Source of the DNA: Armatimonadia bacterium
Lineage (GTDB): Bacteria; Armatimonadota; Zipacnadia; Zipacnadales; UBA11051
Length of the DNA stretch: 15,061 nt
Assembly (NCBI GenBank): GCA_039683575.1
Contig: JBDKRC010000225.1
Location: 1-15,061 of the forward strand
Direction: 5' to 3'
This document shows positions 4,794 to 8,511 of the stretch, piece by piece. The notes beneath the pieces are model-generated. The model had not been told where the DNA came from. It worked only from the letters and a program-made list of their open reading frames with translations, and ran no database searches. The position numbers were made by a program, and so were the translations under genes. Within the stretch, counting starts at the first letter, position 1; every line of letters starts with the position of its first letter.

Positions 4794-4823
4794 ATTATAA
4801 GTCAAAGGAAGCCCGAAATGCAA
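4794..4823 (-). promoter_or_regulatory. Putative sigma70-type promoter for the lipoprotein gene (possibly extending to dnaE)
   Basis: Minus strand TTGCAT (4823-4818), 18-bp spacer, perfect TATAAT (4799-4794), in an otherwise GC-rich context about 70 bp upstream of the ATG. Confidence 0.65.
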
Positions 4824-6109: not shown

Positions 6110-6853
6110 GTGAGCGACATGCAGACGATCATCGATGGGATGACTGACGATCAGAAGGCTGAGTTCGGCGACAGGTTCCTACGGACTTGGAGTGACCATG
6201 GCTTCGGCACGCTTAGCAAACGCGACACAGAGCTACTACTGTTCAGTTGTCTGACCGAGGTGATAGGGGAGGGGCTTCCTCGCACCAACTACGACTGGGC
6301 GCGGGCACTGCGAATCACACCTGCACGGGTGCGCAACCTGCGGCGCGATGCCTACATGCGCTTCGGAAGCCTGCTTGATGCCGATCAGGGCGTGGCTCTA
6401 CTGAGGAGGTGTCTCGCCAATGTAACCACGATGCAGGTGGATCTATCCGGGAATGGTACTGGCAGCGTGCAGATCGTGGCGGACGACCCCGTCATCGAAC
6501 TGGAACTCGAGCCGAGACTCAAAGCGTTGGGCGGGTACTATGAGTACGGCCGTAACCGGGAGTTGCTGCAGATTCCCCTGTCGAGCTTCGTTGCCGTCGT
6601 GGACACCGTCCTTGGTGTAGACAGTGAAGAGACTTTCGTGGCTGTGATGGAGAGGGTTTTGCAGGACCAAAGAGCCCGTGGCGCAGTGGACCGTGAGCTT
6701 GCCAGCAAAGCTTGGGCAGACAAGTCTGAGGGCGGCAAGATACTTCATTTCCTGAAGTTCCTCGCTCATACCTTTGCTGACAAACCTGCCAAGCTAATCG
6801 AGTATCTGGAGCCAATCATGGGAAGTCATAAGTACCAGATAGCGAAGCCGTAG
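6110..6853 (+). CDS. Hypothetical protein with an N-terminal helix-turn-helix-like segment
   Basis: Open frame of ~247 aa. GGAGG at 6096-6100 favours GTG 6110 (ATG 6119 also possible). TNYDWARALRITPARVRNLRRDA resembles an HTH. Composition is protein-like. Confidence 0.8.
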   Translation: MSDMQTIIDGMTDDQKAEFGDRFLRTWSDHGFGTLSKRDTELLLFSCLTEVIGEGLPRTNYDWARALRITPARVRNLRRDAYMRFGSLLDADQGVALLRRCLANVTTMQVDLSGNGTGSVQIVADDPVIELELEPRLKALGGYYEYGRNRELLQIPLSSFVAVVDTVLGVDSEETFVAVMERVLQDQRARGAVDRELASKAWADKSEGGKILHFLKFLAHTFADKPAKLIEYLEPIMGSHKYQIAKP

Positions 6854-7073
6854 CAGACACGCGTGGATCGCACGACGCGGGGTTGCGGGACCGCCCCAGG
6901 CAGCTGACCGTTAGGCAGTGGCCCACCGGGGTTAGTGCAAGTCTCAATTCGACACGACGCTGCTTTCCGGGTTCAGTCAGTAGGAAAGGAGCTGCAGGCC
7001 GGCGAATAGACGTACAATACCATAGACTATGTCGAGGAGCCACCCAGGCTCACCTCGTCTTGCTGGAATCAGC

Positions 7074-7101
7074 ATGGGTCATAATTCGGCTTATAGACCC
7101 A
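7074..7101. other. dif-like site 1: ATGGGTCATAA-TTCGGC-TTATAGACCCA
   Basis: 11-6-11 layout with the CATAA-N6-TTAT core of E. coli dif (GGTGCGCATAA-TGTATA-TTATGTTAAAT). Arms TGGGTC/GACCCA are complementary with one extra A. About 180 bp upstream of a Xer-like recombinase. Confidence 0.6.
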
Positions 7102-7150
7102 CTCTCCGACCCCAAATCATCCCCTGCAGTGGCGGAAGGCATCTGAAGAA

Positions 7151-7178
7151 GCGGCACATAATCACTTTTATTGTGCCC
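7151..7178. other. dif-like site 2: GCGGCACATAA-TCACTT-TTATTGTGCCC
   Basis: Same CATAA-N6-TTAT core, 77 bp after site 1. Arms GGCAC/GTGCC are complementary with one extra T at the same position as the extra A in site 1. Confidence 0.6.
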
Positions 7179-7278
7179 ACTGTATTCAGAAGCCTTTGAT
7201 CCCCCGGTTATGAACACAACTTGAGCGCGGCGATGTGTCCCCTTCCTGCTCCGGCAGACGGAAAGGATGTGCACGTAA

Positions 7279-8199
7279 GTGCAAGTGACTCTGGACACAC
7301 TCGCTCAGCAGTTTCTCCTCTATCTGCAGGCCGAACGAGGCTGCAGCCCCCTCACAGCAGCGGCCTACCGCTCCGACCTCGCCAGCTTCTTCACCCCCCT
7401 TCAGAAGACGTTCGCCGTGGAAACGCCCGACCACATCACAGTCGACATGGTCCGGTCCTGGATCGTGTCCATGCACGCGAGAGGGCTCTGCGCCGACAGC
7501 ACCGCGCGGCGTGTTGCTGGCTTCAAGAGCTTCTGGAAGTACCTGTGCGAGAACGACTTGGCGTCGCCTGCTCTGCTGCTCAAGGTACGCGTACCGAAGC
7601 GACAGCGGAGCCTGCCGCAGTATCTCAGTGCGAGCGAACTGCGCAGTCTGCTCGACGCTGCGATTGGTCAGAGAAATGCCTTCTCGGCCTTTCGCGACTA
7701 CGCCATCATGGCAACGTTCGTCTATACCGGATTGAGGCGGGCGGAACTCCTAAGCCTCAGGATAGCTGATGTTGGTCTGGCGGAGGGGGTGCTGCGGGTT
7801 GTGTCTGGCAAAGGGGGCAAGACGCGTGTCATCCCGATTGTGGCGGAACTGCGCGAGGCGTTGGCTGATTGGCTTGAGGTGCGTCGGGCAACTCCCCGTC
7901 ATGACTACCTATTCATCGCCAGCCGGGGCAACCGAATCTATGCCGGACGACTACAGATCATCTGGAAGAAGCTGCTGGGTCTGACCGGCATTGCCCGGCC
8001 CGGTGTCAGCATGCATACCCTTAGGCATTCGTTTGCCACTCTGCTCTTGCGGAGTGGACAGGCGGACCTGGTCTCGATCCAGCTGCTGCTTGGGCATAGT
8101 CGGCTGGATACGACGGCGATCTATCTGCATGTCAGTGGGCAGCAGTTGAGGAAAGCGGTGGCGGCGCACCCGCTGGCTTCTCAAGCTCCCGTGACGTGA
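7279..8199 (+). CDS. Tyrosine recombinase, XerC/XerD-like
   Basis: 306 aa. N-terminal SAM-like core-binding region (FLLYLQAERGCSPLTAAAYRSDL). Full catalytic set R153 (TGLRRAEL), K178 (GKGGKTR), H246/R249 (HTLRHSFAT), H273 (LLGH), Y282. GTG start with GGAAAGGA at 7260-7267. Confidence 0.95.
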   Translation: MQVTLDTLAQQFLLYLQAERGCSPLTAAAYRSDLASFFTPLQKTFAVETPDHITVDMVRSWIVSMHARGLCADSTARRVAGFKSFWKYLCENDLASPALLLKVRVPKRQRSLPQYLSASELRSLLDAAIGQRNAFSAFRDYAIMATFVYTGLRRAELLSLRIADVGLAEGVLRVVSGKGGKTRVIPIVAELREALADWLEVRRATPRHDYLFIASRGNRIYAGRLQIIWKKLLGLTGIARPGVSMHTLRHSFATLLLRSGQADLVSIQLLLGHSRLDTTAIYLHVSGQQLRKAVAAHPLASQAPVT

Positions 8200-8241
8200 A
8201 CCATGTTGGTGTGGTTTTCGCATCAGCACCTGCACATCGGC

Positions 8242-8375
8242 GGCGGACCTGATCATGGTACGGTAGGGCCCTTACGGCGCGCCGCTTGGCTTCTGCTTGT
8301 TGGGGCATCTGGTGCTCAGCCTTCTGCGAGCAGAGCGGCGCAAGAGTGGTGGGAGCTCCTTGCACCGTATCCGCC
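8242..8375 (+). other. Extended nested stem-loop downstream of the recombinase (candidate structured RNA or ssDNA element)
   Basis: Nested pairings: GGCGGA 8242-47/TCCGCC 8370-75; TACGGT 8259-64/ACCGTA 8364-69; AGGGCCCTTAC 8265-75/GTGGGAGCTCCT 8349-60 (imperfect, G.U); GCGCCGCT 8279-86/AGCGGCGC 8334-41; CTGCTTGT 8293-8300/GCGAGCAG 8326-33 (two G.U). Confidence 0.5.
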
Positions 8376-8417
8376 TTCGCCCACTTCTCGAGACCGGGTT
8401 CAGCCCCCAAGGAGCAG

Positions 8418-8451
8418 TATGGGGGGTACCGCATTGGCGGTACCCCCCATA
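8418..8451. repeat. Perfect 15-bp inverted repeat with 4-nt loop (34 bp total)
   Basis: TATGGGGGGTACCGC-ATTG-GCGGTACCCCCCATA, between the convergent recombinase and PDZ-protein genes. No poly-T tract on either side. Confidence 0.9.
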
Positions 8452-8511
8452 GGCGTAAAGGCAATGTATTCGGCGCAGTCATTACCGGCCTTTGCCGATA
8501 TGACGACATGG

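Follow-up and report, generated by a model that had tools for sequence, protein, structure and literature searches.

The question raised by this locus is what kind of site is formed by two short palindromes that resemble Xer recombination sites and lie just upstream of a tyrosine recombinase gene. The window, by which we mean the whole stretch of 15,061 nucleotides that was analyzed, is an entire 15-kb contig of a metagenome-assembled genome (MAG) in 352 contigs. Site 1, which we treat as a core attachment site for the reasons given below, occupies 7075-7101 on the forward strand (TGGGTC-ATAA-TTCGGC-TTAT-A-GACCCA, with left arm TGGGTCATAA, center TTCGGC, and right arm TTATAGACCCA). Site 2, a second dyad, occupies 7153-7177 on the same strand (GGCAC-ATAA-TCACTT-TTAT-T-GTGCC). 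A sequence-only reading of the window had described both as dif-like hairpins with different arms and the same single bulged base, and had proposed that they might be read as folded single-stranded DNA, cruciform, or RNA, or might be autoregulatory operators. Overall, that interpretation is partly supported by the analysis reported here.

The two sites are real and nonrandom. Both were found in the places given for them, with ATAA starting at 7081 in site 1 and at 7158 in site 2, i.e., 77 bp apart, and they have CATAAT-N5-TTAT-W-G in common. The pattern ATAANNNNNNTTAT is present in 2 copies in the window and had no match in 200 dinucleotide-preserving shuffles of it, so that the pattern is not equally frequent in shuffled sequence, which the sequence-only reading had named as a possible refutation. 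Across the whole genome (6.23 Mb, 63.5% GC), there are five ATAA-N6-TTAT words, and only sites 1 and 2 among these five are flanked by 5 to 6 contiguous complementary bases at a 1-nt offset. A relaxed scan of the whole genome returned 64 TAA-N6-TTA words, and in three of them no fewer than 5 of 6 outer bases are complementary; because two of these three are sites 1 and 2 themselves, the genome contains no array of further such dyads, including between accessory genes, where additional copies had been suggested. A site-2-like word on contig C44 was taken as a chance match because it is the end of an ordinary gene. As single-stranded DNA, site 1 folds with -5.6 kcal/mol (z -3.6) and site 2 with -4.7 kcal/mol (z -2.3). 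As had been argued from their different spacers, the two sites are not recombination partners for each other.

The adjoining gene (7279-8199, forward strand) encodes a 306-aa Xer-like tyrosine integrase with matches to PF02899 and PF00589. Its scores against the XerC model (235.7 bits versus a cutoff of 335) and the XerD model (218 versus 330) are below the thresholds, as are those against the integron-integrase models TIGR02249 (101.8 bits versus 265) and NF011946 (68 versus 435). The nearest named solved structures are XerA and XerD, and 5hxy, 1a0p, and 5jjv are solved relatives from Xer systems. The residues R153, K181, H246, R249, H273, and Y282, which we take from the motifs of XerD to be the catalytic set, are all present. 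The best solved-structure match is PDB 9i5v chain 14 (E 7e-42, full length), the label of which, "Ribosome-associated translation inhibitor RaiA," misfits its 401-residue Xer-like sequence. The genome contains 12 such recombinase matches, one of which, on contig C302, passes the XerD cutoff; neither of the two proteins tested passed the XerC cutoff. Searches of annotated phages and plasmids returned only generic XerC/D-level relatives, with at most 38% identity.

The identity of site 1 is suggested by a block at 7083-7107 (forward strand), which is a 25-nt copy of the 3' end of rnpB and is identical to the rnpB end of a genome of the same genus (G235). The block takes in the conserved segment ACAGAA-nnCGGCUUA as well as the tail and the terminal helix's 3' strand, and it aligns to the end of the RF00010 model, at approximately positions 337-365 as estimated from the alignment. 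The window and the same-genus rnpB end differ only in the left arm, which reads CATAA in the window and CAGAA in rnpB. The rnpB stretch ACAGAA-yTCGGC-TTAT-AGACCCAC... itself contains a near-dif core, AGAA-N6-TTAT, which explains both the fit of a Xer-type enzyme and the earlier impression that the sites are dif-like. Several core matches with no recombinase nearby gave six-frame "peptides" that recur in different genomes, and such identity is the mark of a conserved RNA gene. Of 10 loci with the motif and without an integrase, Rfam has rnpB ending at the motif in 9; it puts rnpB immediately before the integrase gene in 9 of another 16 loci and then in 2 of 6. The core is the true rnpB end in at least 10 homologous integrase loci; elsewhere, including the window, the left arm imperfectly mirrors the right arm.

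Beyond the 25-nt block, no rnpB remnant was found in the window. Rfam at gathering thresholds and ARAGORN returned nothing for the window, and a permissive Rfam scan of 6500-7350 gave two chance-level matches only besides the short copy. Nor was rnpB found on the contig or anywhere in the 96%-complete assembly (G000). The gene is also missing from two of five checked relatives that have many core copies.

The association of the core with the integrase was followed in homologues from genome and metagenome collections, comprising Armatimonadota, "Zipacnadia," and WS1 MAGs. The sequence TCGGCTTATAGACnCACTCTCC stands upstream of the gene in nearly all recombinase homologues. An initial look found the core in 16 of the first 25 loci, with five of the nine misses starting inside the gene, without upstream DNA. 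Among homologues with at least 36% identity, the core lies 103 to 222 nt before the start codon in 50 of 62 distinct upstream regions, two of the 50 being mislocated weak matches; of the 12 misses, four offer less than 250 nt before the gene, and in one, L013, the core is inverted. The proposed tie between the sites and the adjacent Xer-like recombinase is thus borne out upstream of its homologues. The locus shows two features of an attachment site in a stable RNA gene, namely an identity block that is the 3' end of the target gene and an integrase gene that adjoins the core in homologous loci. The 25-nt identity with rnpB and this association indicate that site 1 is the core of an attachment site used by a family of integrases directed at the 3' end of rnpB, rather than a dif site or an attC-like site that acts when folded.

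When 401 genomes of the phylum were searched by pattern, the core turned up in 43, which are concentrated in the order to which the window belongs, with 1 to 12 copies per genome; the reversed pattern, used as a control, gave at most one match per genome. Among the copies listed, those within a genome share lineage-specific substitutions (5 of 5 in G357, 3 of 3 in G243, and 3 of 3 in G027), i.e., they are alike within a genome and different between genomes. The present genome has two copies, one in the window and one on contig C55, and up to 12 intact palindromic cores are spread over many contigs in a genome of 2.9 Mb. Many core matches in the 401-genome search lie within 100 nt of a contig end, and this, together with the absence of rnpB from the present assembly, points to assembly breaks at rnpB and at the core loci in MAGs; the repeat probably breaks assemblies at rnpB.

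Some loci display unusual arrangements. In L013, the core (505-526) is reversed relative to the integrase gene and has several ATAGACC words upstream of it. A simple inversion at the core was considered for this locus and rejected on topological grounds, as such an inversion leaves the right arm beside the integrase. In L083 (2233-4107), the integrase gene lies between two inverted cores 1.85 kb apart, and the segment between them may be invertible; the left core has perfectly palindromic arms (GTGTCTATAA and TTATAGAC), and site-2-like half-sites (GAAGCGGCACATAA and GTGTGTACATAA) lie approximately 70 nt to its left.

Several observations suggest that DNA is exchanged at the core. The cores of the window and contig C55 are identical at 26 of 26 nt, and the integrases beside them are 39% identical. 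In one MAG, two paralogues have 92.6% identity, which is confined to the stretch that begins with the left arm of site 1 and ends with the stop codon of the integrase gene. L092 and L102 have 85% identity over 95 nt of left flank, with integrases that are 67% and 51% identical to the query; together with L086, they have approximately 75 to 100 nt of left flank in common and different integrases, and the same is true of L005 and L099. Left flanks and integrases thus appear, from these comparisons, to assort independently. One contig of G027 carries rnpB followed by a core and integrase gene, a second core and integrase gene 43 kb on, and a third such pair 8.4 kb further, all in direct orientation, which makes it a tandem array.

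Public sequencing runs agree with this picture. A 1985-nt contig from run X1 matches window positions 6300-7107 with no differences and then continues into unrelated sequence; since the left flank is unchanged through the core and then joined to different DNA, the core appears to be a recombination joint. On a contig from run X2, another left flank precedes the core and an unaltered site 2, and a third contig is an rnpB end. The run evidence for these alternative joins consists of assembled contigs, not reads. No contig in four public runs bridges the window's own left and right flanks, so the MAG contig is the sole source for the join at 7107/7108. In X1 and X5, 7190-8500 has no contig cover, and this gap is not informative about absence. 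Both occupied and empty targets are seen in relatives, in that rnpB occurs with and without an adjacent integrase, and the comparison of flanks within the genus lacked synteny: the rnpB flanks of two same-genus genomes have no flank in common, and within the family, synteny at the DNA level is too divergent to map an insertion.

The second copy in this genome, on the minus strand of contig C55 (L045, 1822-2861), is a core and integrase module without the site-2 dyad. A relic, TATAGACC-ACTCTCC, lies approximately 140 nt to the left of this core copy, and a divergent second tyrosine recombinase gene comes next on the opposite strand; the trio of core, integrase, and opposite-strand recombinase is also present in L084 and L086. 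In the window, the left (P-arm) flank of site 1 contains two direct ATAGAC words on the forward strand (7006-7011 and 7022-7027), identified by sequence and by a repeat match in which 7000-7011 is 83% identical to 7087-7098. On this weak indication, the two words may be accessory half-sites or relics of older cores.

The shared bulge, which gave the two sites their common hairpin geometry in the sequence-only reading, holds in the window; across homologues, it holds for site 2 and not for site 1. Among 47 cores with enough left flank, 16 have an rnpB-type left arm (ACAGAA or ACAAAA) and 31 do not, and the 31 non-rnpB-type left arms are imperfect inverted copies of the right arm. In 22 of these 31, the arms fit best without an offset, either uniquely or in a tie; the sole best offset is two in five, offsets of one and two tie in one, and the sole best offset is one in three. 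These three loci (the window, L103, and L075) all have the left arm GGGTCATAA. With the right arm fixed by rnpB and the left arm GGGTCATAA one base short, the "bulged A" results. The extra base at site 1 therefore looks, from these alignments, like a local accident of one arm variant rather than a designed extrahelical base, and the idea of a conserved site-1 hairpin with such a base is not sustained. The apparent covariation of the arms between loci has a similar origin, as the right arm follows the terminal helix of the host rnpB and the left arm copies it.

Site 2 behaves differently in homologues. All 24 aligned loci retain its left half, which reads AGCGGnAyrTAAGC, at a constant distance from the core. 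Within the clade with at least 65% protein identity, a dyad with a 6-bp spacer and a 1-nt offset is best in eight of nine loci, with 8 to 11 of 13 positions complementary; the exception, L088, has a degenerate inner TTAT and is best at a spacer of 7 with no offset, its outer arm being equally distant. In 15 more distant loci, the left half is kept and the complementarity of the right half falls to 4 to 9 of 13, which argues for a half-site read as sequence and not for a stem. One arm position is C:G, T:A, or A:T in different loci. When 10 site-2 regions were aligned, RNAalifold gave only a 10-pair dyad with two compensated pairs and a covariation term of +0.4, so that covariation, which had been offered as evidence of folding, does not serve as such. 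The half-site resembles the rnpB-side core arm GGCACAGAA, and the right arm of the core is echoed by the right half of site 2 in both L011 and L069, a likeness that points to an origin of site 2 by duplication of the core. In paralogues further removed, the same arm instead contains several TTATrGnCyCAC half-sites, direct or inverted, and L083 has half-sites on the left side too.

An outer inverted repeat (7136-7147 and 7185-7196, forward strand) surrounds site 2, and with it the region 7130-7200 folds with -13.7 kcal/mol (z -3.7). The sequence of this repeat is not conserved among relatives, and in a 92%-similar copy from run X2, the left outer arm has an insertion and a deletion and site 2 is unchanged. 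A third half-site at 7270-7283 on the forward strand (TGCAC-GTAA-GTGCA, with GCAC(A/G)TAAG) overlaps the GTG start codon of the integrase gene, and GAAAGGrTGTGCACrTAAGTGCA is conserved in most of the 24 loci. A three-codon frame, ATG TGC ACG TAA, stands at 7267-7283 directly behind an AGGA box and overlaps the conserved TGCAC-NTAA-GTGCA mini-hairpin that contains the integrase GTG start; the frame or the mini-hairpin may control translation. With arm-like half-sites at a fixed distance in the integrase-proximal arm, conserved along with the integrase clade, site 2 probably serves as an operator or, within the P' arm, as an accessory site bound by the integrase. An operator role, which the sequence-only reading had also raised, is possible judging from the position and sequence of the half-sites.

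In the window, dnaE and three open reading frames without a family match lie to the left of site 1; the genes to the right of the integrase gene encode a PDZ protein, then an ECF sigma/anti-sigma pair, and then an M48 peptidase. The dnaE and orf349 genes, 2.3 kb to the left of site 1, are syntenic with two genomes of the same genus, in which an ECF sigma/anti-sigma pair comes after dnaE-orf349. The orthologue of that pair in the present genome is inside contig C56 (3300-4342). This broken synteny implies that dnaE-orf349 and the pair are separated by a rearrangement or by at least approximately 25 kb of other DNA, and that genome-specific DNA starts near 4800 and runs off the contig. With core genes so near, a plain tandem array downstream of rnpB does not by itself account for this locus, which calls for a rearrangement, a secondary target, or an old core that was displaced. 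No second core copy (attR) was found in the window. Beside the G337 homologue of the neighboring orf352 there is neither a core nor an integrase, and the genome has two dnaE-type genes.

Taken together, these data make it quite probable, in our judgment, that the module integrates at the 3' end of rnpB and that site 1 is the element's own copy of the rnpB core. The product of 7279-8199 is a simple Xer-like tyrosine integrase without an arm-binding domain. The center TTCGGC and the right arm of site 1 are rnpB sequence and, on integration, would replace the displaced end of the essential rnpB gene. The left arm GGGTCATAA imperfectly repeats the right arm in inverted form and would offer a binding place for a second integrase monomer, and strand exchange would be expected at the borders of the 6-bp center, as in the Xer, Cre, and lambda systems. 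Site 1 as present in the window would then be an attP-like or tandem-junction form, with the DNA to its left belonging to another unit and the DNA to its right, from site 2 through the integrase gene and onward, to the element of this integrase. Site 2, 77 bp inside the integrase-proximal arm, would be a second dyad of integrase half-sites; site 2 and the half-site at the start codon most likely serve to assemble the recombination complex, to keep the integrase gene repressed, or to do both.

Points against this reading are the failure to find rnpB in the assembly, the single core copy in the window, the join at 7107/7108 that only the MAG contig shows, the nearness of dnaE and orf349, and the scattering of intact palindromic cores (up to 12 per 2.9 Mb), which is unusual for classical islands. 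It is conceivable, if rather doubtful, that the 1.1-kb modules of core, accessory site, and integrase go beyond plain integration at rnpB and act as portable joints that swap flanking gene blocks between loci and strains, in a modular cassette exchange distinct from integrons. Such exchange would leave as its traces a left flank that continues into different right flanks from sample to sample and an independent assortment of left arms and integrases. A further alternative starts from the known single-recombinase Xer systems, in which the site adjoins its recombinase gene. The protein here is XerC/XerD/XerA-like and its core has the form ATAA-N6-TTAT beside the gene, as would be so if the sites were the dif of such a system (XerS/difSL, XerH/difH, or archaeal XerA/dif) and resolved chromosome dimers. 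This we regard as extremely improbable. Dif, on which host XerC/XerD act under the control of FtsK, is expected once per replicon, and the core occurs twice here and 1 to 12 times in relatives; it copies rnpB, and its flanks are variable. Another canonical dif-like word, of the CATAA-TACAGA-TTATGTCAAA type, is single-copy in four of four genomes of the genus, and a XerD above the equivalog cutoff is encoded elsewhere, so "dif-like" in the sense of dimer resolution is not upheld. In the present genome, a canonical-looking dif word, ATATAA-TACAGA-TTATGTCAAAT, lies at 18305-18327 of contig C239 (L046), and it was not found in 42 other genomes of the order at up to three mismatches.

The sites could also function as folded single strands, in the manner of attC or CTX phage, or as RNA hairpins, with the bulged base directing strand choice. 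Both fold better than shuffles, the 1-nt offset of the site-2 dyad is kept in nearly all of the close relatives, one arm position changes in a paired fashion, and differing outer inverted repeats flank site 2 in several lineages. Set against these points are the rarity of the offset at site 1 and a right arm there that is dictated by rnpB, the distant loci in which the left half of site 2 outlasts its complementarity, the RNAalifold result, the absence of an array, and the 102 bits reached against an integron-integrase cutoff of 265; folding is thus very unlikely to be how the sites are used. Only a little less unlikely is a role for site 2 as a terminator or processing hairpin that the element supplies for rnpB read-through, or as part of the integrase promoter. 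The integrated form would place it approximately 50 nt downstream of the mature rnpB end, and the extended hairpin in the window is stable. However, no T-tract follows it, a promoter and terminator scan of 6800-7400 found no terminator- or sigma-70-like site, the outer stem is not conserved, and the half-site is conserved more as sequence than as a stem.

That elements integrate into tRNA and tmRNA genes at their 3' ends is textbook knowledge, and Williams in 2002 is said to have described tyrosine-integrase islands and prophages at such ends. The module proposed here is like those islands in that the identity block is the 3' end of a stable RNA gene and the element's copy would restore the gene, and in the integrase gene beside the att site, the tandem arrays, and, among relatives, the presence or absence at the same spot between genomes. 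It differs in its target, rnpB, the gene for the RNase P ribozyme, in its short Xer-type integrase without an arm-binding domain, and in its core-type accessory half-sites and many intact palindromic cores away from rnpB. Elements of the IMEX type, such as CTX phage, integrate at dif and encode no recombinase. The dif-like core is common to both; since the module carries its own Xer-like recombinase, it is not an IMEX, and its target is a dif-like word inside rnpB. Compared with XerS/difSL, XerH/difH, XerA/dif, and XerCD/dif, the module has the same fold and size, an 11-6-11-like core with ATAA/TTAT inner arms, and an adjoining gene, whereas its core is multicopy, copies rnpB, and bounds variable DNA in a genome with its own dif-like site and XerD.

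Extra recombinase-related sites are familiar from integron attI, which has the additional IntI-binding sites DR1 and DR2, and from cer and psi, which have accessory sequences. In each, as here, such sites or accessory DNA flank the crossover on a single side, next to the gene, and a comparable role for site 2 is possible by analogy. In contrast to integrons, there are no attC arrays and the enzyme is not an integron integrase; neither an integron-type integrase nor an array of folded sites with conserved extrahelical bases was found. No host accessory-protein sites were identified.

With respect to published targets, the Islander collection, in the part of the paper drawn on here, covers tyrosine-integrase islands within genes for tRNA and tmRNA (PMC4383910). 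Phage phiEf11 integrates into ffs, the 4.5S RNA gene, according to the portion of PMC12540744 used; it is similar in having a stable RNA gene other than tRNA as attB and attP near the integrase gene, and different in its target gene and integrase family. The introduction of the same paper, as far as it was available, gives tRNA/tmRNA and csRNA genes as known RNA targets, with rnpB absent. We found no report of rnpB as an integration target in the portions of the literature searched, including PMC12424338 and PMC12884075, and the TIGER target list may still include it; in PMC3541175 and PMC5462765, rnpB occurs only in the reference lists.

The main finding is thus a putative rnpB-targeting, Xer-like integrase module, recognized by its sequence relationships, with rnpB as the apparently new part. 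If this is true, island finders limited to tRNA and tmRNA genes overlook a class of elements, and targeting of rnpB also explains why MAG assemblies break at rnpB and at these loci. A simple Xer-type enzyme would have become an integrase by way of a natural dif-like word (AGAA-N6-TTAT) in a universal RNA gene, and the family would comprise compact integrases of approximately 300 aa with a 25- to 30-bp target that nearly every bacterium carries in some form.
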